Part shown: positions 34,438 through 58,920 of the stretch, piece after piece | Layout: every line of letters begins with the position of its first letter | Numbering within the stretch: the first letter of the stretch is position 1 | Origin: Chiloscyllium plagiosum | Taxonomy: Eukaryota | Direction of reading: 5' to 3' | NCBI RefSeq assembly: GCF_004010195.1 | Contig: NC_057752.1 | Coordinates: 11,317,160 to 11,381,159 of the forward strand | Length of the DNA: 64,000 nt | Notes under the pieces: generated by a model | Seen by the model: only the letters and a program-made list of their open reading frames with translations | What the model was told of the DNA's origin: nothing | Databases searched by the model: none | Translations under genes and position numbers: made by a program

Positions 34438-34590
34438 GTGCACTGCATCAGTACTGAATTCACAACACGGAAACATGGGGGAGAAAAGGGTGTGCCTTTC
34501 CGAATTCAAATAGATACATTCAAGGAGAATGAAAATGGTGAATATACAGAGCATCTTCATTCAGCTAGCTGCCAAATCAAAGTGTTCAAG
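34438..34590 (+). CDS. TFCP2: TFCP2 exon 6 equivalent, 153 nt (phase 0-0; core of CP2 DNA-binding domain)
   Basis: tccttag| ... AAG|gtatgg; [51 protein letters not shown]. Confidence 0.97.
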
Positions 34591-41279: not shown

Positions 41280-41717
41280 GTAAGACTGCACTAGTTTGTT
41301 TGAGATCTGGCACTTGTTTTCTGAAGTCAACTAGATGTGTTTTTTGGTGTGTCATATTTTGATTTAAAACTGTAAAATTGAAGTGTTGAGGAAGAGGGAA
41401 GAAGCCCAATTGGCTTATTGTCAATGTTATTTTGATTTCTGTTTTGGTTCATTCTTGGGACAGGGCTCATTTTTTAAAAAAAATTAAATTACTTGAAGTA
41501 ATTCAGTGTTCATTAACAGTTATGAATCTGCTAAAAGACTAATTAAAAATGTCTAAACATCAATGTACAGTAGACTGTAGGAAAGTTGTGTAGTAACTAT
41601 AAGGAACCTACCTGTTATTGAAATGAATCTAACAATAGTTGTGCATAATTTTGGGGTAGTTGTCCATCACATTTTGATTTATAAGTGCCTAACTGACATT
41701 TTTCCCCCCTCATCCAG

Positions 41718-41806
41718 TGTTCTCCCTGGCCAGACATTTCCTACGTTAACAATACGGCATCTCCTGGCTTTAGCAGTTCGCAGGGCAGTTATACCATTGC
41801 TGAAGG
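41718..41806 (+). CDS. TFCP2: TFCP2 exon 8 equivalent, 89 nt
   Basis: catccag| ... GAAGG|gtgggt; CSPWPDISYVNNTASPGFSSSQGSYTIAE(G). Confidence 0.93.
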
Positions 41807-41893
41807 GTGGGTCTCATCATTGCTATTTTATCATTCTCATAATTTGCAGCATTTGAAAAATTTTTTTCATAGAAGCAATTGATCTAATTTCAG

Positions 41894-41942
41894 AAATGGA
41901 TCCCCTCATCATCAGCCTGACCCGGTTCCTGCAAGCACTGAT
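41894..41942 (+). CDS. TFCP2: TFCP2 exon 9 equivalent, 49 nt
   Basis: atttcag| ... GAT|gtaagt; (G)NGSPHHQPDPVPASTD; follows an 87-nt intron. Confidence 0.92.
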
Positions 41943-43159
41943 GTAAGTGTTCTTGTTTTCCAGCATTATTCATAAATCTATCCTGCTCAATGCAATAACA
42001 TGAGAATATTGTGTCTGAAAGAATCATAGAAACTTGCATCAAAGGAGGAAGCTCGCTGTGGATTTTCAGCAGATCAGTTATGCTTGTTGACTTATGTTTG
42101 TTTTTATCTGAAACCCTCTTAGTTCCTCAGTTCAACTACCTGGGCCATCTCCGTTCTAAAGTAATTTCTGAAATCAGCTTTAAATATCTTTTTCACACAA
42201 AGTGCTCCAGATCCTGATGACTCTGGTGGGAGGAATGTAATTCTCATTTCCCTCCAGCTCTTTTTTCCAGTGATTTTGAATCTGTGATCTCCAGTTATTG
42301 ACTCATTTGCCAGAGCGAATGTAATTTCCTTACTTACTCGATCAAAACAGTTTTTCATCTTAACCTCTCTTAGGTCGCTTCTTGTCCTCCTCTATTCCAA
42401 GAAAAAGACTCCTTCCCTTTCTTCCCCCAGCCAGCGTCCTTTGTGCCTGTGGACATCCTGCCAAACCAACTCTGTATTCTTTATGAATGCCTTTACAAAG
42501 AAAGGCAGGACTGGTACTAAATATTCCTGGATGGAAGTTGTTCAGGAAGAAAAAGAAACCTAGCAATAATAATTTAAGGAGAATGTTACAGTGATAGAGA
42601 GAGGATGCCCTGAAGGGCCATGGCTGAAATCTATTTGGTTAGAGTGAAGAAACAATAGAGGTGCCATTACATTACTCAGTGTATTCTTATAAGTCAACAA
42701 GTTATAAAGAGAAATTGCTGGAGAAACTCACCATCTCTGGCAGCATCTGTGGAGAAAAGCAACATTAACATTTCTGGTCTGGTGACATTCCTTCAGAAGT
42801 AAATTTTGTAATCCCTATAAATCTCTCTCTGGCAGTGAAGTGTAAATTTCTTGTGCTTTGCCCATGCAGAGTAAGTTGAGAGGTAATGTTCAGTTTTCCT
42901 TTGGCTGACTTAGTTATCTGGCTATTTTCTCCAAATGACATAAAAGAATGCCTTCCTATATTATACCGTCCAAAGGATGTGGTCCTCCTTGTATTTCTAC
43001 TAAATCTAAATGTTCCTGCTGGTATTTCAGCTCTCTCTGCCTTCCTAGATTTAGCAAAGGGTTTCACCACCAGCTTAGTTGTCAATTCAATTAAATTTTG
43101 GGAATGTTGACTTGTGGAAATTCATTAAGACGGACCAGGACAATTCTGCTTCCTCATTG

Positions 43160-43700
43160 TACAGTACAGAAGAGGCTCTTTGGCCCATGGAGTCTGTGCT
43201 GATAGAAATTACTCCAAATCTACACTATTTCCACTTCCCAGCATTTGCCCACAGCATTGAACATTGTGACATTTCAAGTGCTCATTTAAGTACTGCTAAA
43301 ATGAAGCCTCAACTACCCTCCCAGGCAGTACATTGCAGATTTCTACCATTTTCTGGTTGAAAAAGATTTCCTCAAATCCCCTTAAAAACTTCCTGCCTTT
43401 CATGTGAAGATTATGCTCCTTTGTTATTAACCCTTCAACAAAGTGGAACTGCTGCTTTCTATCTCTCTACATGTCTTGCATAATTGAATACATCTCAATC
43501 AGGCCCCCCTCAGCCTTTTCTGCTCTTTTTTTAAAAAAAAAACAACCTGCGCCTATCCAGTCCCTCTTCATAGCTGAAGTGCTCCATCCCAGGTGACATC
43601 CTGGTGAATCCCCTCTGCACCCGCTCCAGTGCTAGCACATCCCTTTTACAGAGCAATGACCAAAAAATACATACAGTACTCCAGATGTGGCCTCACCACA
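43160..43700 (-). mobile_element. Degenerate CR1 3' fragment
   Basis: Reverse-complement similarity to the other CR1 3' ends in the window. Confidence 0.65.
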
Positions 43701-44210
43701 GTTTTGTGCTGCTTTGTACTCCTGTAAGGAAATTGTAAAAGATTCCTGTCACTTCTTATTTGTAGTACAGATTTGGGGTTTTCTTTTACCTTTATCTCCA
43801 AGTATTGCCAAACCCAAATTCATGTTGTCACTGTTCCACATTAATGTTAGCCAAGAGCCCCCGGTCTCTTGTTAAGTCTGACTTCTGAAAGTGCGCTGAT
43901 GTTTCAATCTCCGTTATTCCTGGTGTCTTCACAAAAGTTGAAAATGTAATTAAAGCACGTAAAGTCCCCAATTTATTTATCTGATAGACTAACAAAGCTA
44001 ATGGGAAACACTGACCAGGTTTTCGTTTATAACGAGAATCGCTATTTATTACAATTCTGTAAATTTTCAATACAGATAAACAAACTCAAGCTATCAACAT
44101 ATGACTTTAGTAGTTGAAACTGTAACTCTTTTTAAAATCTTTTGTGCGTGTGTACACCAACAAAAAGTATTGGCATTATGAGTAGAGGAAAATTACTGGG
44201 GAGAAATAAA

Positions 44211-44555
44211 ATCACAGAATCCCTACAGTGTGGGAACAGGCCATTCGGCCCAACAAGTCCACATCGACCCTCTGAAGAATAACCCACCCAGACCCATTCC
44301 CCTACCTTATTACTCTACATTTACTCCTGACGAATGCACCTAGCCTACACAATCCTGAACACTGTGGGCAATTTAGCATGGATGATTCACCTAACCTATA
44401 TATCTTTCGGATTGTGGGCAGAAACCGGAGCACCCAGAGGAAACCCACACAGACTCAGGGAGAATGTGCAAATTCCACACAGATGGGCACCTGAGGCTGC
44501 AATCGAACCTGGGTCCCTGGTGCTGTGAGGCAGCAGTGCTAACCACTGAGCTACC
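44211..44555 (-). mobile_element. HE1-like SINE
   Basis: Matches 2472-2773 over most of its length. Confidence 0.82.
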
Positions 44556-45089
44556 TCCAAGCCATGTGCCATCCTGGCTTGGAAATATGTTGCTAGGTCA
44601 AAATCCTAGAACTCCTCCCTTACAGCATTGTACATTGGATTGCAGCAGCTAAATAAGAGAGCTCAACACCACCTTCTCTAGGGAAATTAGGGATGTGCAA
44701 GAAATGCTGGCTTAGCCAGCAGGTCCCTCAAAAGAACGCTAAGAAAGTGACAATGCTGAATCAGAAAGTCCTGGATACTGGTCTCCTGCACAATGACAGA
44801 TCAGGGTTGTCAGCTTCGGTTCAAAATCAGAAGCCTTTCCTCTGGTGCAGAGGAGTCCAAGATGAGGAGTAGCGGTGTTAAAGTGAATGTCGCACCATGT
44901 AGGGGGGTAATGTCAACAAACACCTTTGCAGACAAAGGTTAGTAGAAATTGAGAATTCTTTTTCCCCCCGATTGGAGGTTTTGAAGACTGACATTTCGGC
45001 GTTGTTCTTCAGGGATACAGGACAAAGGTGGGCAAATTTGTGAGGCCCAGATCAGCCACGATTTGATAGAATGCCAGAGAACAGAACAG

Positions 45090-45675
45090 CCTTGAAGGTT
45101 TGAGTTATATAAAGAGGCTGGGGCCTTTTACACTGGAGCATAGGAAATTGAGGGGTGACTTTACAGAAGTTTATAAAATCATGAGGGGCATGGATAAGGT
45201 GAAATGTTAAAAAGGGCATGATGGGCAATTTTTACAAATTCTTTAGAGTGGTGTGTATGTGTAGAATGAACTTCCAGAGGAAGTGGTGGATATGGGTACA
45301 ACATTTAAAATATTTTTGGATAAGTTTGATTAGACTAGATTAGATTCCACACTGTGGAAACAGGCCCTTCGACCCAACAAGTCCACACCAACGCTCCGAA
45401 GAGCACCCCACCCAAGACCATTCCCCTACATTTACCCCTGACTAATGCACCGAACACTACGGGCAATTTAGCACAGCCAATTCACCTAACCTGCACTGGA
45501 CTGTGGGAGGAAACCGGAGCACCCAGAGGAAACCCACACGGACACGAGTTCATGAGCAAGAAATGTTTGGAGGAATATGAGCCAAGCAAAACAAGTGGGA
45601 TTAGTTTAGTTTGGGGTTGTGATCAGCATGGATTGGTTGGACCGAAGGGCCTGTTTCCGTGCTGTACGACTGTAT
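45090..45675 (+). mobile_element. CR1 3' fragment with nested partial HE1-like SINE (45330-45546, -)
   Basis: LRGDFTEVYKIMRGMDKV motif; SINE tail ttagactagattagatt. Confidence 0.75.
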
Positions 45676-47279
45676 GAATGGCTGTTGCCTGGTTTTAACA
45701 TTTTGATTGTATTAATACAATATTTTGATGGGCAGGACAGCATTCTAACCTGCAACATTATCTAGTCATCTGTGCGTCATTGTGCTCAGATCCTCTTGGC
45801 TCCCCATCTCCATCCAGTTGAAGCTGGTGTGGGCGCAGTACATACCATGGCCATGGGGGCTTCTGGTGTGGGTGCAGTACGTACCATGGCCATGGGCGCC
45901 TGTGTGCAGTGAAAGGTCCAGTAGAAAGGCATGCAGGATAACACGCTCCTCAAACTGATGCTGAGCAGGTTCCAAGCTCGCTCACAGCTGAAGCCAGGAA
46001 GGGGATCCCTGCCTCCACCTCGCAACACAGGGCCCACGTCCTCAAGGAGGTACCAGCAGAACGCTGTTACTGGCGCCTCCAGCCTAGCACCAGTCTAAAG
46101 GCTTCAATGAGATGTGTTCCTTTCTCTTCCTAAGACCACCTATTCTCTGCTTTTGTTCATTCCAGACTCTCAGCTCTTTGACAAGGATCCAGGGGATTTA
46201 TGGACTAATTGTCCAATTTCACATTCACTGTTTAGAGGCAACACCTTCCCACGGGTGGGAGTCATTAACTGACCGCTTTCAAGCTCAAGTTACTTTGCTG
46301 CAGACAGAATAAAGACAGACCCTGCTTCTTCCAAACTAACCATTTCTTGCTACCCCCAACATTTATACACACAGCTGTTCAGTTGCCTGCAATCCAATCA
46401 GAGAGCTGCTATGAAGGTGATACCTCTGGTGTCCACAAGTGGTCACAGTTGCACCCACCAAACAGTAATCTGTTGCTGGCTGAATCTTTGTTTGTGCATA
46501 TATCCTGGTGCCATGCCATCTCATCTCATCTCATCTCATCTCTCCTCCCCTTTTGCTTGTGGAACAGCAGTGTAAATATAATTCACAATGAGTCCAGTGA
46601 CTTGTTTTTAAAGTGCAGCATTTTGTTTCCCAATCCTTGGTTTTGATAGTCCTTTTCCCATTTTAGTCTACAATTAAAAATGTAGAAAAGTAAATAGATG
46701 CAATCTTTATGCTGGATAAGGACAGCAGATTTTCTTCACTTTTTTGCTCACTTTTTTAATTTCAAGTTTATTTATTTAATTAGACTTAAATGCTCCTGTG
46801 ACATACTAGGATTTTAACTTTTTCCTTTTCCTTTCTCATGGGATGAGTATGCCTTGGCAAGCCCAGCATTTGTCCATCTTTAACTGGCCTGGGGAGGTGA
46901 TAAAGTCCTCTCTTGAGCTGTTGCAGTCCATTTGGTCTTGGTGCACTCACAGTGGTGTTAGGGAGGGAGTTGCAGGATTTTTTTAAAAAAGTGTGCAGTG
47001 TAGGTTCTGCTGGCTAGGCCAATGTTTATTTTTAAAGTGCTGTTAAGAGCCAGCGACGTTGCTGTGGGTCTGAAATCACATGTAGGCTAGACAAGGTAAG
47101 GATGGCAGTTTCCTTCTTGAAAGGACATGAGTGAACCAGATGGGTTTTTCCAACAATTGACCATGGTTTCATGGTCATCATTGGGCTATTAATTCCAGGT
47201 ATTCCACCATCTGCCATTGTGGAATTTGAACCCGCGTCCCCAGAACATTAGCTGTATTTTATTTTGATAGCTAGGCCAT

Positions 47280-48280
47280 CAGTAACAATGAGGGTGGTGT
47301 GTGGCTTGGAGGAGAACATGGTAGTCTTCCAATGCATCTGTTGCCCAACCCCAATATCCTGTGACTGAGATGACTGACCTCCAAGGACCCACAATTATCT
47401 TCAGTTGTACTCTAACCATTTCCCCCAATTCCAGTTCTCTCCAGTTTAGCTAACGCTCCTTGATGCCACGATCAAATTTGACCTTGATGTCAAGAGCAGT
47501 AACTCTCACTTCAGTTCTGGAGTTAACTACTTTTGTCCATGTTTTGACTAATGCTGTAATGACATGAGGAGCTGCATGGGCCTGGCAGAACCTAAAATAA
47601 GTGGCAGTGAGCAAGTGATTGCCTTGTCGGTTTTGCTTGATTGTACTACCAACAAAACATTCGATTAATTTGCTCATGATTTAGTGTAGACTAACGCAGT
47701 AATTTGTCTGAATTGGATTTGACCTACTTTCCCCTAGTAGATGCAAGGGGACAGGCAACTGCATTGCAACTTGGCTAAAGGTGTAGCTAGTTTTGGAGTG
47801 CAGGTCTGTTACTGGGATATCGTCAGGGCCTATAGCCTTTGCAGTGTCAAGTGCCTGTAGTGTTTTCTTGATATGTGATGAGTCAAATTGACAGAACCCA
47901 TCTGTGATGCTGGAGAGCTTAATAGTAGACTAGTACGGGTCATTTACCCGTGATCTTATAGCTGAAGATGGCTTTACAAGCTTTGACCTAGCTTTTCAAG
48001 TTTCTCCATAATTTCGATGGACATGTTTGTGGAGCTGCCTCCTCCAGTTTGTTCTGAGGGCTGAACTAGACATATTTTTAATCAATAAGAAAATCAAGGA
48101 TTACAGGGCTAAGGCAGGACAGTGGAGTTGAGAATTATCAGAGAAGACATGATCCAAATTACCTGCTTCTGCTCCAAATCTTATTGTTTTATTATCCACC
48201 TCCATTCATGACTGGGAATGACAGGGTTCTGAGCCATTGTTCCTGATCTCCCTTTGTTCCATCTGTTGTGTGCTGCTTCA
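47280..48280 (-). mobile_element. Degenerate LINE RT fragment (second family)
   Basis: APHVITALVKTWTKVVNSRTEVRVTALDIKVKFDR. Confidence 0.65.
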
Positions 48281-49414
48281 CTGTTTAACATGTATGCCTC
48301 TAGATCATTAAATCTGTAATGTAACCACATCTGTGTCTGTTCATTAAACTTCCAGGGCACCTTTTACTTTAAAAGGAATATACCTAGATTGTGTCTAAAT
48401 TATTACCATCCTCAATGGGTTGATGGCTCTTTACGCTTTTCCCTAAATCACCTTTCCAACCTCCTTTAAATCATTTCATGGAATTAATTCTAACCCTGTT
48501 GACTTTGTTTTGCATGTTGTTTTTTCTGATCTCATTGCCATAATTATTATAAACAAAATTCTGTTCTTGTCCCTGCTATCCAGCTGATCTCCTTTTGGTC
48601 TCCGGACCAGATCTAGATCCAATGTTCTTGCTTTTTGGATGGGAGGCATAGTAGTCAAGAAAGTCTTCCGTGTGAATCAAAATTTCTCCCCCTCAATACA
48701 CTTTACACTATTTTCTTCCACTCCTACTGTTGCTATTTTTGTTTTTTGCTGCATATCATTGACATTTATTCCTCTCTCTCCATGATCTTTGGAACTCCAA
48801 TTTTTTTTCAAAAATCTACCAATAAAACTGCTCAGCCCCTCTTCTTGTAGTCAAGTCAAACAGGTTCAGTCACGGATCCAACTGTAAATCATTTCTATTC
48901 TTCCAGCGGTGTTTGAAAATGTGGAGTAAACAGATTAGCTATGATCTTATTGAATAGGCTTCAAGCAGCTGTAATAGTAGCATCGCCTTTAATCAATAAT
49001 GCCTTGTCCCCTCCTTATTTTGCTTCTCTATATTGTTGCTGCTCATTGGTGACCAGGCATATTAAATTTCTGCCCGCAGCTAACCAAACTTCTTACTTAA
49101 ATTACAAGCAAGAATAGCAAAGGAGGTATTAAATTCTATTTCTTCAATCTGGTTCCTGTATATTTTCTGAATATTTTTAACTTTGCTACATTTTTTAACC
49201 CTCTGTCCTTTGACCTAATTTCTGCTTTCTGGTTCTCCTTCCCCTGTGAAATTATTTAAACTATTAGTTAACCTCTCAGCGAAAATATTTCAATTGAACA
49301 ATGCCTGGATCGATCTGCTCATCTTAGACAGTTGCCCTTCTGCCGGACTGGTCTGAAATCCTCCCTCCTGCAGTGCTTGTCCAGCCCCACATTTGCTTGC
49401 GTAATCATCTTGTT

Positions 49415-49642
49415 GGAACAAATTACTGCAGATGCTGGAATCTGCACTAAAAACAAAAAGTGCTGGGGATCATGATTGGTCAGGCAGCATCCATGGAGAG
49501 AAAGCAAGCTAATGTTTTGAGTCTAGATCATTCATCAGAGTTGAAGTGAATTGAGCTCTAACGAAGAGTCCTCTACATTCAACATTAGCTTGCTTTCTCT
49601 CCATGGGTGCTGCCTGACCCGCTGAGATCTCCAGAATTTTTT
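49415..49642. mobile_element. PLE-derived hairpin element with decayed hammerhead motifs
   Basis: ggcagcatccatggagagaaagcaagctaatgtt vs aacattagcttgctttctctccatgggtgctgcc; gtaatcatc direct repeats flank. Confidence 0.72.
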
Positions 49643-50034
49643 GTAATCATCCTGGTTAATGTCCTAGAGCAATTTGAATTTATATGTACTGGATATTTAA
49701 CCCCTGCCATCTCCCCTCCCTCTCCCCCCCCACCCACCTTGCTTGCGCTCTCTTCTCTCTCTCTTTTCCCCCACCCCAATAGTGCGTTGACAACTCACTT
49801 TTGTTTGTAAGATTGTGGTCACGCTTAATTGTTAGAAGATGATTATACTTTAAGTTCTTTACATATGAGCCTAGGTTTGCCCATATCCAATAAGTTTATT
49901 CGTGATTAGCCCTAATATGATTCAGATTTTGGGGCCACAGTTGGATCAAAATCTTTAGTTGAGCTTTGATACAGGTGCCCATGCTATTTGGCAGTGATTT
50001 TTGGTTTACAGTGGAGATTTCTGTGAAATCAAAT

Positions 50035-51690
50035 CTATTTGCCTGTGTTTGGTTCATATCCCTCCATACTTATATCCCATCCATGTATCTGTCCAAATGT
50101 TTCTTAAATGACAAAATTCTACTCCTCTCCACCACCTACCTCTGACAGCCTGTTTCAGACAGACGCCACCCTCAGTGGAAAAGAATGCCCACTGGATCCT
50201 TTTGTATCTCTCCCCTCTCAACTTAAACCTATGCCCTCTAGTTTTAGACTCCCCTGCCATGAGGAAAAACTGTTAGCTTATCTATGCCTCTCATGATTTT
50301 ATAGATGAGTATAAGGTCACCCGTCAGTCCCCGACACTCCAGGGAAAACCGCCCCAGCCTATCTAGCCTCTCCTTATAACTCAAACCTTCTAGTTCAGCA
50401 AGTGTCCTAATAAATCTTTTCTGCACTTTTTCTCGTTGAATAATATTCTTTCTGTCGAAAAGCGACCAGAATTACATGTAGAACTCCCTTATCAATGTCT
50501 TGTGCAGCTGCAATAAGATGTCCCAACTCAGTGCTCTGACAAATGAAAGCAAGCATGCTGAAAGCTGCTTTCACCACCCTGTTTACCCATCACTCTATTT
50601 GCAAGGAGCTATGACCCTGAAACCCCAGATGTCTTCATTCTATAACATTCCATAGGGCCCTACCATTAACTGTGTGAGTCCTGCCCTGGTTTGACCTACC
50701 AAAATGCAACACCCTACATTTATCTAAATTAAACTCCATTAACCATTCCTCAGCCCACTGGCCCACTTGACCAATATCTTGTTGCTTTCCAAGATAACCA
50801 CCTTCACTGTACACTATACCATCAATCGTGGTGTCATCCACAAACTTACTTACCATACCTCCTGAATTCTCATCCAAACTAGTCATATAAATGACAAATA
50901 ACAGTAGACCCAGCACTAATTTCTGTGGCATACTACAGGTCACAGGTTTCCTGTCTGAAAAAATACCCTCTATGACCACCCTCTGTCTTCTACATTAAAG
51001 ACAATTTTATATCCAATTGACTAGCTGTCTCTGGATTCCATGACATTTAACCTTACTCGACAATCTACCATGTTGTACCTTGTCAAAAGCCTTGCTGAAG
51101 TCCATGAAGAGAATGTCTACTGCACTGCCCTCATCTATTTTCTTGATCACCCCTTGAAAAAAACTCAGATTCGTGAGACACTATTTTCCACGCACAAAAC
51201 CATGCTGACTATCCCAAGTGCATCCTTGCTTCTCCAAATACCTGTCGATCCTGTCTCTGAGAATCTCCTCTAAGACGACCACGCAGACATTGGGCTCACC
51301 AGTCTGTAGTTCACAGGCCTTTCCCTGCAGCCTTTCCTAAATAATGATACAACATTGGCCACCGTCCAATCTTCAGACACTTCACCTGATCATGGCTGAT
51401 ATTTTCTCAATCCCATTTTCCTGTCTTTACCCCATTACCTTTGATCCTCTTACTCATCACAAACCTGTCTGTCTCTGTCTTAAATATGCTCAATAACTTG
51501 ACCTCCACAGCCTTCCTCGACAATTACTTCCACAGATTAACCACCTCTGGCTGAAGCAATTTCTCCTCATCTCTAATGGAAACAGCTTCTCCACCTCTGC
51601 TCTATCCAAGCCTCTTAGTATTCTGTAAGTTTCAATCAGATCACCAAGTACAAGTGCAGAGTCCTCAACTGCTCCTCATATGACAATTAT
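50035..51690 (-). mobile_element. CR1 LINE ORF2 fragments
   Basis: LGLLLFVIY..SKFVDDTTIDG..WLMEFNLDKCRVLHFG; QKRFIRTLAELEGLSYKERL. Confidence 0.88.
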
Positions 51691-54218
51691 AAATCAAAGA
51701 GCACTTGATGTAATCCCAGTGTGTTATGTAGAAGTTGGTATTGAAATGTTTGCATCTTCCATATTCTATTTTTTTCCAGCTCTGTCCTCTTGGTCCAATT
51801 TAACTTGTACGTATGTGCATATGATATATTTCAGTGTTTAATAGGTCTTCAGATGCTGATGGGGTCCTTTTGAGATGGAAAAGTGTGGAAGGAATGTGCA
51901 TCACACTTGGTCAGTTCCTCAAAGCTAGCAGGTGCAAACATGCAACTGCAGAGTGACCTTTTCCCTCAACTGGAGTTTGCTTCTGTTGGAAAAAAAATGA
52001 GAGGCTGAAAGTGAATGTTTTTGAAGAGAGTGAGAGCTGTTACCATCATCTCAAACTTTTCAATTATTTCAGGCAGGAATTTCTCCCCCCTCAGTAAAAT
52101 AGGGAACAAGAATCCAGAACAAGTTTGAAAATCAAACACCACCACTTAGGTATGAGTCCTGAAGGAGATAGTCTCCATCAGTTTGAGAATGTGGTGCGCT
52201 GCTGCAGAAAGCCATAGAAACAAATTAATGGTATTTAAAATAGACTGAGGTACTCATCCATTCATAACAGGTTTAAAGTGATATGCTTCCTACCTCTGCA
52301 AATGATTGAGATGTCACACTTGACTCTTAACTAAGCCAGTATTACAAAATGACTTGTCTGACAGTGGAAATTAGCGTTAAGTCACCTTGCTGCAGTCCAC
52401 TTAATAAATTGATAGCTAAGCAACAGGTCTGTAATACTGCATAGAGTTTATTTTAAATTGACTAATCTGCTTGCTTTCAACACTTTGGATCAGTCTGTTC
52501 AGAGATGTTATGACACACCTCTGGAGCAGGTGGGACTTCTTATGCAGCAGTAGAGACACCACCACTTCCACAGAGCACTCCAGCCTAATTTATTATTGGA
52601 AATTGGAATGGGAACCTTACCATGGAGTCCAGATAAACCTGAAAACTGCTGTAACCAGGAAAATCCTGGTTAGACAAAAAAATTAGGAAGCAGATTTGGG
52701 AAAAGATTTGTTAATCCACGAAAGGCCCACAAAAGCAATATTGGCCAAACTGTACCAGAACACCCAGAATTCCTGAGCAGCTCTCAAACTGAATCAGACA
52801 GCACGCAGACAAGGGAATACACCTTCAGCTCCCTTAAGCACCACAGATATCTCCAAAGTCCTAAGGGCAGTTTCACAACCCAGCAATACCAAAACACCAC
52901 AAAGAGCAGGACAGACAGGCACCAGCAAGGACATGCTCCAGGAACAGGACAATGGAAGCACCTCACCACTTCAGAGGAGACATTAACACCTACCTGTGAA
53001 GCTGAATGGAACCATGATACTGTCAGGATGTTGCATTGTGTGAAGGAACAGGACATTCATCTGATAAACTGTTTTACAATTAACATCCTTGCAACTAAAT
53101 TATTCAATTTCCAGAAACATTGTAGTTTCCCATTTCTTAATCAGTGTCATTGTGCAGCATTACTATAAAACTGGTCTCATCCTTGGCTCTGGGATGAGAA
53201 ATTCTGATCTACCTGTACAGACTGTCAGTTCTGTGTTAGCCTAGTCAATTTCTCTTCCAGTGATATAGCTTGCAATAAACTGTTTGTCAATTTCACTTCC
53301 AGCTGTGTTTTGTGATCTCTAACCTATTGGGCAAATTTCTCCGACAGCAGACTAGTGCTATTTGCTCCTAAGCTTAAGGTTTTATTAGCAGTCAACCAAT
53401 AGCAGTGCAAGTGTTCATTCTTTGGGATTCTTAAGCCTAGGTTTTTGTCCACCCAAGCTTTCTCTCTTAGACCGATATCCCACTTACACAAGTCCAGTGT
53501 AGAAAGAAACTACCTATGGCAATTTTTTTAGTGCTTTTGCTTGAAAACTTTAGTCATGTTGATAGTTTGCATGTGCTGAGCATTTGCACTAGCCAAGGAA
53601 AACCATCTAATCTGCTTTGTGTTTAGATGATTCCAGTAGCCATGAAATGTTCTGCCAGCACTGTGTGGCAGGATGTTTTTCAGATTTATACTCGAGTCGT
53701 GGCCTTGTGTTTTCCTCATTGTGATGAGAAAAGTCTGTCACCTTAAAATAAAGAGTTTGAGGCATAATCGCATTTTAACTCTTAAATCTATTGCAGGTGT
53801 TGACCTTGGATTAGGATGTAAGTTTTTAATCTCGCTTGATCTGGGGCAGTACTCAGAGTGCAGTGCAGCACTATTATAAGCTGTTAAAAAGTTAGCCCGT
53901 GTCTGCCTTGTTCAGGTGGGTTTGAAACATCTAGGGTACTGCGTGCAGGAGAACATTAGGTTAACCTAGTTATTCTTGCATTTGCGTTTGTGGTCTCCGC
54001 GCAAAAACAGCTGTAACTTTCACCTGGAGAATGACCAGTGTGCCTCAAAGTAATTAATTGTATGTAGAGAACTGAGATATAATAAATCTTGAGTATAAAG
54101 TGTGCATGTCCGATTGCTTTAATGACTAGTGTAATTCTTTTTTGAAAATGTGCTTGGGAGCAACTGATATAGAACTGCATTCTAGGTATCTGCTCTGTCA
54201 TAGATGTCTGATTCTTTC

Positions 54219-54575
54219 AGTGGCAGCGTTCTTGTCTTTGAGCCTGTAGGTTGTGGGTTGAAGCCTCATTCCAGGAGTCAGGAGCACATAACATAGGACG
54301 GCACTTCAATTAGTACTGGTGGAGTGAAGCCTTTCAGTCGAACGATTAAACTGAATCCCTGTTTCCCTGTGCAAGTGGGTGCAAATGCTTCCTTGCATAT
54401 TTGAAGAGCAAAGAGTTCTCCTGGTGTCCTGGTCATCACTTTTCCTCAAACAATACCAGCAAAATAGTTTGAATACTTATTGCATGTGCTGCTTGTGGTT
54501 GGTACCTTGCTGAGCGCAAATTGCTGCATTTGCTGATGTACATTTCAGAAGTAATTCAGTGTCTAAGTGCTTTCA
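54219..54575 (+). mobile_element. Old DeuSINE-like (SacSINE1/AmnSINE1-related) relic
   Basis: gaagagcaaagagttctcctggtgtcctgg...ttgctgagcgcaaattgctgcatttgc resembles the Deu domain as I recall it; related copies at about 57965-58330 and 58530-58920. Confidence 0.5.
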
Positions 54576-54875
54576 AATTTAAAAAGTTGCAAGTTGCCAT
54601 AAAATGCTATTTTTCTCTCTGCCTCTGACCTAATTGAATACAGTCCTAATCCAAAAATTTATTTTTTGTAAAGATGCCCCCAAGAATTTGTGCTGAGTCA
54701 GTAATTACTATTGTCCTGCTAATGGGAGAATTATTGAACTGATTATCCTATTTATTTGTCCACTCTCATTTCATTTCTCACACCAACGATAATTGGGATC
54801 TAAATTTGCATCAACTTCTCGATGGCTATTGGACGCTTTCAAAAAAATACCACTTCATGCTCTGTACAATTTCAG

Positions 54876-54908
54876 CTCAATAATTCTATTGAATTTTCAC
54901 TAGATTTG
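54876..54908 (+). CDS. TFCP2: Candidate alternative micro-exon of TFCP2, 33 nt (LNNSIEFSLDL)
   Basis: aatttcag| acceptor, consensus TTG|gtaagt donor, length divisible by 3, no stop in phase 0 (matches intron 9 phase); no transcript evidence. Confidence 0.5.
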
Positions 54909-55053
54909 GTAAGTGATTTTTTTTTTCTCATAAGATTTTTTGATTTCTTTCAATTTGTATACAAAGAAACTGTACATGCATGTGTACATGCATCCAAAGT
55001 GAAAATCACTTTTAGGTTTTTGCAGAAGTTCACAAGTAACTTTTTCTTGTCAG

Positions 55054-55119
55054 ACACTGGGAACCTTTCGCAAGTGGGCTTGTCGGGAACTGTCCGTGTC
55101 TCCCGTCTCCGAAAATCAG
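55054..55119 (+). CDS. TFCP2: Candidate alternative cassette exon of TFCP2, 66 nt (TLGTFRKWACRELSVSPVSENQ)
   Basis: taactttttcttgtcag| acceptor, CAG|gtaggg donor, 22 open codons in phase 0, GC/CpG-richer than flanks; no transcript evidence. Confidence 0.5.
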
Positions 55120-55635
55120 GTAGGGGCTTTTGTTGCCAAAGTGCAAACAGACTCAATTTTGAGAGTTACGTTTAATGTTGCCCACAAGCACTGCTCTGAA
55201 GTTGGAGAGAGACCTTTGACCCCTCAATTTTGAGCAATTTAGCAAATGGTCATGTGACCAGAAAAAAAACTGATTCAAGCTATTGCTATTTAAGTGGGAT
55301 TCCAATATATTTAATTATGACTTTTTTGATTTATCATTGTGGCAAAGGATTCCAGTTCTTTCACTCGCCAAATGTTGGGGTGAAGTAGCTAGTGTGGTGA
55401 TATGTTAAATTTTGTATGGAACAATATGGACTGTAGTTTTCCCCTAGTTCGATAGTGCACCAAATGGCTCAGCTTAGCATCAAGGAAAGTCACTGACACC
55501 CATTGGTATGTGTGACTGAGTGACTCCAGTGGAGTTTGCACTCATCTTAGCCAGCTCCTAATGTACTCTTGGGTCATTGTATCTGTGTGTACATTTCAGG
55601 GCTCATGTCTAAGACTTGCAACTTTATTTTTGCAG

Positions 55636-55729
55636 AATCTGTTGCCAACAGCCACACCTCAGGACGCTCAGCAGTGGTTGCACAGAAATCGATTTTCTCC
55701 ATACTGCAGGCTCTTCGCAAACTTCTCTG
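55636..55729 (+). CDS. TFCP2: TFCP2 exon 10 equivalent, 94 nt (start of SAM-like domain)
   Basis: tttttgcag| ... TCTG|gtacct; [31 protein letters not shown](G). Confidence 0.95.
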
Positions 55730-57964
55730 GTACCTTTTGCTTATTAACTTTTATTTGGGTGAAAATATTTAGCACAACTACCTGGGATGCAGGAATTGGT
55801 TGCAACACGTTCCTTTCATCTGGAGGATCTAGGTTTAGATTCAGTTGGGCAAGAAGAAGAAAGTCTTAGATCAAGGATCACCATGCTGCACTATGTTTGC
55901 AGCTTCTGCTAAGTTTCAGTAGTAAAATGCCCACAGCACCAACTTACCTTTTCCAATTTAATGTCAAGTTGCAGTGTTCAGTGGGATTTCAAGAGTGGCT
56001 TGTGTGGAAAATGGGCATGTTGCATTTCATTGCAGGTAAGCACCCCAATGAAGTCCAGATTATGAGGAGAAAGGACACTTGTTAAAGTGCCTGAGTGCCG
56101 CCTAGTAAGATTTTTGTTTAGAAAGGTGTCTAGCCATGGACTGCATAATATTGTCCAAATTGAAAAGAGTAGTGGAGACAAGTAGCTAATACCAAACTCT
56201 GCCTCTTCAAACTATAGGTTTTATTTGGAAGAAACAGTGGCTGAAGGGAAGAAAGGAATTTCAGCTTTAAAGTGAACCTCTGAAAGAATGAGTTTAGAGT
56301 AGATGTATTAGGTTCTAATTTAAACCTCATGAGTCTGAGAGGGGACAGTATAAGTAGTGCTTGGAGCTGAGAAGAGACTAAACCAATGTTGAGTGAACGG
56401 TGACATTAAGTGAGCGACCTGAAAGGTTAAGGTGGGATAGGGAATTAAAAGGCTTGATGTATGCGAAAAGATTTGTTTTCTGCACATTACCAGAAAAGGG
56501 GGAATTACATAGCTCTGGTAGCAGACAAGATGAGCTTAATTCGGACTGCAATTATTTCTTTCTAGACAGTGCGGAGACAAATATAGAAATACAAAATATT
56601 TTTAAGTGAACAGTTATAAGACGTCATCGACTGGAGAAATGTGATGACAATATTCAAAAAGGGTCAACAAGTCAGCAAAAATATTGAACTTTGGTTAGAT
56701 CATGTTTGTATTGTTATGCACAGTACATTTTTTTTAATATTGTAAATAAGGTACGGGCATAGTTTGAAAAAGCACAGAGCTTATGAAATTGATATCCAAA
56801 GTGCGGGTATACTGGTCATCAAGAAAACATAAAATGCAGAATAAAGGGGTGACTTAATAAAGATTTTTAAATGAGTGTTTGATAGTAAAGGCATAGAGAT
56901 GTTTCCATTTAATGGAGTAATCCAAAGCTCGGAGTCTCCAATATATAAAGACAAGATGGTCATTTTGAAACCAAAAGGGAATTTGGGAGAATGAGACTCC
57001 ATGTTCTTGCAAAGTATGAGATAAAATGATAACTTCTGTCCTACATCCCTCTATGATGCGAGGCGAAACTTCCTTGCCCAGAGAGTGGGCAAAATGTGGA
57101 ATTTAGTACCAAATGGAGCGGTTGAAGCAAATAGTGCAGACACATTAAAGATGTAGCTGTGGAACACATGAGGGAGACAAGAATAGGTTATGCTGGTAGG
57201 GTTGGATTGAAAGGAATGTTGGAGATTTGTATAAAATGTTAACATTACCATTGACTAGTTGGAATGAATGGCTGACATGTGCTGTACATTCTATGTAAAA
57301 CTATTCTACCTTCAATGGTTCACACAAGATTGTTGCTACAGGTTCTCTGAGCTCATCTAACTGCTAAACCGTCCTATCTACCAGTTTAGTTGAGTTTGTC
57401 TTGCTCTTGCCCATGATCCAGAGTGCCTCACATATTTGAGCATAATACTTGATGGTTTTGTAGAGAAAATGTTGTAATCTTTGGAGACACTTTGTCAGAA
57501 GAGATGTCAGTCAGGTCTTCTCTGCCTGTTCAGGTGGGTGATACTTGACACTCCAATGGTGTTGGAAGCAGACTACAAAGTAGCCACTATCCTAGCCAAA
57601 GTAGTTTCTCCAGCTAACACTACCAAAACATATTTTGTTTATTCATTTTGTCACGTGACACCTTCTGAAGTGAATGTGCGCAATTGCCTACATAACCAAC
57701 ATATTTCGAAAGTACGGAGTTGAATCAGTTGAATGTAATTTAGGTGCTGTATAAACTCAAGTTTTTATCCCATCTGATACAGAGACTCCAAGGTTTCCAA
57801 TGCTTTGGAAGAGCTCCCTGGTGTTGCCAGAGTTTTGTTGTGGCAGGGGTGGGTAGTTCAGGAAACTGCTTTTGCGTATTCTGCCAAAGAGAACTTTATT
57901 TTAAAAAGGTCTCTGTAGAGCTTGTTCGTGCATTTTGTGTCAACTTTGCACTACTATAAGCATC

Positions 57965-58920
57965 CTTTCCTAAATCAGGAAGTTGTGGGTTGAAGCCCCA
58001 TTCAAAGTACTCTCGCGCCATATAAAAGCGGTGTGTAATGTGTTGTGCCACCTTTCAGATGTGAGGCTAAGTGGTCCCTTGACTGTCAGCTCACATGGCA
58101 TATAAGGTTCCATGGCACTATTAAGAAAGTGGAATTCTCCCCTGGTTAATGTTTGACAACTTGCACTACACAAACACTATTTGTTTTACTTCATTTAGTT
58201 GCTGTTTTTAAGACTTTACTATGCGCAAATTGGCGGCTGCATTTGCTTGCATAATGATTGCACTTCAAAAATTACCCTTGGTTGCAAAGCACTTTGGGCT
58301 ATTTTGAGGGTGTTATGAAGCAGTATATTGAATAACATTCACTGTTCTTTCCATCTTATTGGTTAAGGAGCATCTATAGGTTCGCTGCCGTTGACTGAGC
58401 ACTTGTCTGAACTGATGGAGACTTTGGTTGGTTTGAGAAAGCTGCCATTGACAGTCATCCTTTGTATTCATGTAATGCACCTGATTTCAAAATAAGTTGC
58501 TTGTGAAATAAACTGAGCAATCTGGCTCCACTTTTTCCCATTTACGAGCACTGCCCTACTTTGGAGCATAAGCACATAATCTAGGACTTTTTGTCTGGTT
58601 ATGGGTGATGATTGGATTTTTGGAGTTGCAGCATTACAGCAGCGATGATAGATTCTTGGTCTATCTGTCTAGTTCTATGTGAAATAGACTGCAACACTGT
58701 TGGGAGAACAGGGAGATTTCCCTTTGTCCTGACTAGCATTCTTGCTTCAAACCAACACCACTAAAAAGATTCTTTAATTCGCAGTATGACTATGCGCAAA
58801 TTGACTGCTGCATTTGCTTGCATAGCAACATTGACGGCACTTCAACATTACCTCCTATACAATGAAGCGCAGTGTTTTGCAACATCGTGAGAATGTGATG
58901 AGGTGCGATGTAAATGTGTT
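57965..58920 (+). mobile_element. Two further DeuSINE-like relics
   Basis: Shared actatgcgcaaattg.c.gctgcatttgcttgcata block at about 58218 and 58789. Confidence 0.5.

Follow-up and report, generated by a model that had tools for sequence, protein, structure and literature searches.

The window, a stretch of 64,000 nt of the Chiloscyllium plagiosum genome, carries part of the transcription factor gene TFCP2. Identification of the gene was based on the 153-nt exon at 34438-34590, which matched 1,639 CP2-family proteins; the closest among the 120 matches listed was a shark TFCP2 with 98% identity. Twelve exons in the window, including the 33-nt micro-exon studied here and a 66-nt exon downstream of it, reproduced the RefSeq protein P0006 at 375 of 375 residues, and all 12 had AG/GT ends. 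Exon 1 and the last exons of TFCP2 lie outside the window, and the terms "intron 9" and "phase 0" assume a single upstream exon with 122 coding nt outside it. A run of 50 N is present in intron 1 (1063-1112). The features surrounding the micro-exon are listed in Table 1.

Table 1. Exons and sequence elements at the exon 9/10 junction of C. plagiosum TFCP2. Positions are those of the window; negative distances are counted from the first nucleotide of the micro-exon.
Feature	Position	Strand	Description
TFCP2 exon 9	41894..41942	+	49 nt; upstream partner of the micro-exon; encodes invariant S309-P310; donor GAT|GTAAGT; phase 0 out
Predicted distant branch point TGCTAAT	54717..54723	+	Branch A 54722, -154; pattern scan
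AG-free zone	54729..54873	+	145 nt; ends at micro-exon acceptor; third longest AG gap on strand
Second distant branch candidate CTGAT	A 54742	+	-134; pattern scan
Distal pyrimidine-rich tract	54744..54781	+	Four YCAY in 22 nt (54760-54781)
UGC, also a YGCY motif	54858..54860	+	-18; just after proximal branch candidate TTCAT (A 54857, -19)
Optional in-frame micro-exon	54876..54908	+	33 nt; LNNSIEFSLDL; donor TTG|GTAAGT; distinguishes RefSeq X1 from X2
U-rich stretch behind donor	54915..54954	+	25 T in 40 nt, highest of 12 donors
12-nt tandem duplication holding TGCATG (54977-54982)	54971..54994	+	Two short palindromes; predicted 7-bp hairpin pairing the motif
66-nt exon (22 aa)	55054..55119	+	Downstream partner of the micro-exon; in chondrichthyan isoforms, 17/17, chimaera included
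TFCP2 exon 10	55636..55729	+	SAM domain begins

A preliminary description of this DNA had proposed a hidden 33-nt exon in intron 9. The proposed ends and frame were found: tttcag and gtaagt flank a segment that encodes LNNSIEFSLDL and is stop-free in phase 0 of the junction. By sequence, the segment has the properties of a cassette micro-exon, with canonical AG/GT ends, a length that is a multiple of 3 and at most 51 nt, and an open frame in the junction phase. It lies in low-copy DNA, in keeping with the lack of recognizable repeats noted before, with a depth of 3-7 in three sequencing runs compared to tens of thousands over the repeats of intron 9. High-copy interspersed repeats in this intron occupy 44010-45897, 46842-47313, and 50146-51089, where depth reached ~125,000, and they include two related copies ~1.1 kb apart. 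Intron 10 has two 36-nt copies (58218-58253 and 58789-58824; 94% identity, 571 nt apart), likely pieces of a small repeat family.

We determined how often such splice motifs arise by chance. On the plus strand there were nine YAG..GTAAGT pairs spaced 9-51 nt apart in multiples of 3, two of them open in phase 0; one of these is the micro-exon, and the second ends at the true exon 9 donor and is a piece of exon 9. Loosening the donor to GTRAG gave 53 candidates, so the splice motifs alone are only moderate evidence for a micro-exon. Both proposed cues, the UGC in the acceptor region and the downstream TGCATG, are present at the positions given for them. UGC occurs by chance in 26% of -20 to -4 windows and precedes three of the 11 other exons, and 2.7% of positions have a TGCATG no more than 100 nt away; these rates make the two cues suggestive, not decisive. 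Intron 9 holds a second candidate micro-exon at 49783-49806 (24 nt, open in phase 0, CVDNSLLF), with a TAG acceptor behind a strong CU-rich tract, a 111-nt AG-free zone, and a weaker donor, TTT|GTAAGA. CVDNSLLF was not among the inserts of any parsed TFCP2 protein, and this candidate may be a pseudo-exon.

The micro-exon proved not to be hidden, being already present in the RefSeq models of five shark species. LNNSIEFSLDL occurs unchanged in P0006, which is RefSeq isoform X1 of 530 aa (XP_043537978.1, XP_060676925.1, and XP_072423401.1), for Chiloscyllium plagiosum, C. punctatum, and Hemiscyllium ocellatum, the last assigned by a neighboring accession in protein P0123. These X1 records have the same peptide at the same junction with no sequence difference, and they contain no tissue or regulatory information. 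P0123, a model with an alternative first exon, carries the identical peptide. Isoform X2 (P0121, 519 aa) differs by the loss of exactly these 11 residues. Two further X1 proteins carry variants of the peptide, LNNSIGFSLDL in Scyliorhinus canicula (P0126; 10 of 11 residues the same) and LNNSTEFSLNL in Stegostoma tigrinum (P0130; 9 of 11). At the protein level, then, the 33-nt length and the frame are kept in five species of two orders. The two orders have been separate for well over 100 million years. The micro-exon was present in four of the 17 chondrichthyan isoforms retrieved, galeomorph sharks only. All four join it to the 66-nt exon at 55054, which was one of two downstream partners proposed; direct joining to exon 10 at 55636, the other, occurred in none.

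The micro-exon was absent from the X1 proteins of Leucoraja, Amblyraja, Carcharodon, and Callorhinchus and from the single Pristis model; for rays, absence was read from annotation rather than from genomes. The protein cluster has 41 members, 15 of which are covered here; the X1 proteins of Heterodontus, Mobula hypostoma, and S. torazame fall outside these 15. Among 268 stored proteins, we parsed the 162 that had both anchor motifs and dropped 106 (fragments, paralogs, and mis-modeled proteins). No peptide resembling LNNSIEFSLDL was found in the ray, chimaera, or bony-vertebrate proteins among the 162, and none of the mammalian proteins retrieved had it, as had been suspected. Deep vertebrate conservation, which is typical but not obligatory for SRRM3/4 micro-exons, was not seen among the 162 proteins either. 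We found no description of the TFCP2 micro-exon in the literature outside subscription papers and supplements. The micro-exon is already annotated and, in the proteins seen, limited to sharks, and its regulation is undescribed in the literature searched.

The peptide changes faster than the remainder of TFCP2. Two of 11 residues differ in Stegostoma against two of 519 in the rest of the protein (p 0.002), and one of 11 differs in the catshark against 10 of 519 (p 0.21), in comparisons where the rest of the protein is partly the highly conserved DNA-binding domain. All three peptide differences between sharks are single transitions. A contig of a related organism (X3) spans 54599-54910 with 10 mismatches and three gaps in 315 nt, and its conservation there is no better than in its other pieces. 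Three contig sets and one single-cell run were mapped to 41650-55800: the 15 joints listed out of 579 were all in repeats, and the 24 loose ends listed out of 3,086 included none at exons, the intron 9 repeats filling the list. Depth in the micro-exon bin was zero in the single-cell run, 2% of which was read. Inclusion and skipping, together with conservation in two orders, are taken from database models, and on this evidence the 33-nt stretch is very probably a real exon.

The AG-free zone upstream of the micro-exon is the best regulatory cue at this exon and was missed in the preliminary description. There were ~4,134 AG gaps on the plus strand, among which this one ranked third, and the gaps at the other 11 exons measure 17-63 nt. 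A dinucleotide model gave an expectation of 0.13 zones of 145 nt per window, versus three observed. The two longest AG-free runs (48388-48581, 194 nt, and 48664-48833, 170 nt) are also in low-copy DNA of intron 9. Neither had a GTRAG donor within 300 nt or a long minus-strand open frame, and both are probably decayed repeat or plain composition. The existence of two longer runs lacking a donor indicates that long runs also arise by composition.

The layout of the acceptor corresponds to that of exons with a distant branch point, in that an AG-free zone of at least 100 nt has a branch match and a pyrimidine tract near its 5' end. Matches to the branch consensus, YNYTRAY, occur at 5.7 per kb. 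In humans, AG-free zones of at least 100 nt are reported for 838 of 67,334 introns (PMC1431707). According to the same source, exons with long zones are enriched for cassettes (68 of 235 versus 47 expected), and the share of the long-zone introns believed to branch at a distance is only one half to one fifth (PMC1431707). It further states that an AG can be skipped when it lies no more than 12-15 nt from the branch point, which fits the -154 site, and that regulatory elements sit between branch point and exon in the distant-branch exons tested (PMC1431707). The micro-exon resembles such exons, for example PTB exon 11 and GABBR1 exon 23, in having more than 100 nt free of AG and a branch match with a pyrimidine tract at the 5' end (PMC1431707). 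It differs from them in that its branch point is predicted only, a proximal candidate exists at -19, and its 145-147 nt falls just below the 150-nt inspection cut used in that study (PMC1431707).

The explanation that we tentatively prefer is a real optional shark exon whose inclusion is regulated through the 145-nt AG-free acceptor, most likely in favor of neurons, and which would lengthen the linker of TFCP2 by 11 residues. The splice sites, the open frame, and the AG-free zone are read directly from the DNA. We lean slightly toward a branch point at -154 or -134 from which scanning proceeds to the first AG that can be used, which would leave ~130 nt for regulators to bind. Aided by the strong donor, SRRM3/4 may raise inclusion in neurons through the UGC. 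The resulting change in the protein would be a modest tuning of the spacing between S309-P and the oligomerization domain, not a new domain.

Insertions at the exon 9/10 junction are not confined to the micro-exon. The 22 residues of the 66-nt exon hardly vary among chimaera, rays, and sharks and are better conserved than the micro-exon, and the 66-nt exon was absent from the bony-vertebrate proteins seen. It contributes another Ser-Pro site immediately ahead of the SAM domain. With the micro-exon included, the linker gains 33 residues over that of mammals, 22 of which were always present in the chondrichthyan isoforms seen. Other lineages have inserts at the same TFCP2 junction and in the same phase, none of them significantly similar to either of the shark inserts. 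Sturgeon, gar, bowfin, and teleosts have 14-15 aa, to which salmonids and Dallia add another 9 aa; amphibians have 9 aa, turtles and birds 10 aa, and carnivores 6 aa. Extensions at the junction that begin with VS, found in amphibians, sauropsids, carnivores, and chimaera, probably reflect read-through of the donor, as GTRAGT codes for VS. Thirteen inserts of other vertebrates were tested for homology with the shark inserts, and none was significant (best p 0.07 versus shuffles); a 9-aa salmonid piece that by eye has four of nine residues in common with the shark was likewise not significant versus shuffles. Judged from these sequences, junction inserts apparently arose independently in several vertebrate lineages.

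Such recurrence also bears on a different explanation, somewhat improbable in our view, by which the micro-exon is weakly used: exonized in the galeomorph lineage, it would enter a small share of transcripts across many tissues, where an in-frame addition to a disordered linker is tolerated. The narrow taxonomic range would be expected in that case, as would a peptide that changes faster through single transitions only, and the unrelated inserts at the same junction in ray-finned fish, amphibians, sauropsids, and carnivores fit as well. The X1 name carries no information on abundance, RefSeq labeling the longest model X1 regardless of it. Weighing on the other side, two shark orders share the length, the frame, and 9-10 of the 11 residues, and the 145-nt AG-free zone suggests an acceptor architecture that has been maintained.

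We examined the tissue cues on which the neuronal part of the preferred explanation depends. Typical targets of SRRM3/4 are described as combining a weak acceptor with a long AG-free zone and a UGC close by (10.1101/2021.02.24.432780), and TAF1 exon 34' as driven by UGCs at -18 and -29 (PMC6948980). The response to SRRM4 is reported to depend on donor strength and to be conserved from shark to mammals (10.1101/2024.09.17.613571). The TFCP2 micro-exon has the UGC at -18, at the chance rate given above, and the AG exclusion zone of 145 nt; its strong donor also fits SRRM3/4 targets. Like micro-exons of the SRRM3/4 (eMIC) type, such as TAF1 exon 34', it is short and in frame, and it agrees with them in the long AG zone, the position of the UGC, and the strength of the donor. 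Unlike them, it exceeds at 33 nt the strict definition of 3-27 nt (10.64898/2026.05.02.722430), it has no extended UC-rich tract beside the UGC, and its range among the proteins seen is that of galeomorph sharks. The UC-rich tract is distal only, and about -35 to -29 is occupied by an A run. Conservation across vertebrates is the rule for neural micro-exons, whereas this one was seen in galeomorph sharks only. Neural micro-exons are also reported to have a longer branch-to-acceptor distance, with a median of ~45 nt (10.64898/2026.01.16.699960), which matches neither the -19 nor the -154 candidate here. On these sequence cues, a neural bias in the inclusion of the micro-exon is predicted with some hesitation.

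The proposed RBFOX enhancer fared less well. The sole TGCATG near the micro-exon lies at +69 from it, a position 72 nt ahead of the 66-nt exon. In three folding windows its GCAUG had a predicted unpaired probability of 0.01-0.13 (87-99% paired), and structure prediction did not indicate an accessible RBFOX motif; taken in full, the 145-nt intron is no more prone to fold than shuffled sequences (z -0.24). RBFOX enrichment on UGCAUGU is reported to vary a hundredfold with accessibility (10.1101/2022.11.08.515616), and structure around UGCAUG can matter (10.1101/2024.01.08.574689). An RBFOX motif upstream of an exon would repress it (PMC2018636; PMC11701043). The position of the TGCATG upstream of the 66-nt exon predicts repression of that exon, yet it is included in 17 of 17 isoforms.

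It is unlikely, though within what the acceptor would allow, that inclusion is biased to other tissues, by NOVA- or PTB-type repression in neurons through the distal pyrimidine/YCAY tract or by an RBFOX/MBNL switch in muscle or elsewhere. Clusters of four YCAY within 22 nt number five on the plus strand of the 64 kb and occur in 1.0% of 150-nt windows, and the one on the distal tract was found post hoc among seven motif types scanned. Upstream NOVA binding generally leads to skipping (PMC11701043), and the placement of the cluster agrees with that of the regulatory elements in distant-branch exons, between branch point and exon. YGCY motifs are present at -42 and -18, and one TGCATG lies downstream. 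This bias is made less probable by the post hoc nature of the YCAY cluster, by the enrichment of YCAY expected in pyrimidine-rich AG-free DNA, and by the predicted pairing of the RBFOX site.

The insertion point within TFCP2 was as had been described, in the linker just before the SAM domain. In P0006 the CP2 domain spans residues 56-258 and SAM_3 residues 354-415, and the micro-exon encodes residues 323-333 between them. The insert lies 14 residues after S309; S309 and P310 are invariant in 60 aligned proteins. Human Ser-309 is reported as an inhibitory cyclin C/CDK2 site (PMC5655617), and its equivalence in the shark is assumed from the numbering. For the tetrameric LSF subfamily, the SAM domain is described as the presumed second domain of interaction (PMC2873413). 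No solved structure in the PDB spans the linker, the DNA-binding domain being the only part covered, and the AlphaFold model of P0006 (mean pLDDT 38.8; linker below 30) was too poor to use. The linker is likely disordered. A modest tuning of linker length is the most likely effect of the micro-exon. A search with the linker against 1.84 billion representatives gave seven matches with 28-34% identity, one of them without an aligned stretch; these were rejected as chance because the six inspected look repeat-rich and unrelated to TFCP2. CtBP and Groucho motifs at the junction of the micro-exon with the 66-nt exon were also rejected, as judged by their general consensus they lack key first or central residues.

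Two forms of the peptide, LNNSIEFSLDL and that of the catshark, fit the class 1c pattern of nuclear export signals (NES) exactly. In TFCP2 proteins the micro-exon might accordingly be imagined to act as an export signal that moves the factor out of the nucleus, an addition to any real-exon reading that we consider improbable. The Stegostoma variant fails the strict pattern (two of three variants match), and no class 1c match was found at the skipped junction. Class 1c matches were found in 1.3% of 12,007 random open 11-codon stretches, and some NES class in 20%. There is a precedent in the paralog UBP1, whose CP2a/CP2b (LBP-1a/1b) forms likewise differ by one optional exon that alters a CP2-family protein between conserved domains. 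The UBP1 CP2b exon is reportedly longer than the shark micro-exon and located at an earlier junction. In contrast to the TFCP2 micro-exon, the CP2b-specific linker exon belongs to a paralog and is reported to control nuclear localization (PMC9223585). A wider picture would be that of a galeomorph neuron-switched micro-exon with an NES beside the S309 site, a mirror of the UBP1/CP2b import exon, at a junction with independent inserts in cartilaginous fish, ray-finned fish, amphibians, and amniotes; as a whole it is highly speculative and quite improbable. Least probable of all is a pseudo-exon from one automatic gene model copied to others through cross-species protein alignment: the splicing support does consist of automatic models, and the GenBank models GCC21653.1 and GCB60437.1 are without the exon, but five species have it and show substitutions particular to species, models that include it occur next to models that skip it (also with the alternative first exon of P0123), it has a consensus donor and an exceptional AG-free zone, and NCBI alternative isoforms are normally supported by aligned transcripts.

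Since the exon was already in the automatic annotation, its detection adds little by itself. Were its inclusion neural, the SRRM3/4 program would have gained a lineage-limited member in a ubiquitous cell-cycle transcription factor. Specialists in the CP2 family and in exon evolution may find the independent inserts at one TFCP2 junction and the near-invariant 22-residue exon of more interest than the micro-exon. If the inserts did arise independently, intron 9 of TFCP2 would be a natural model of repeated exon birth.
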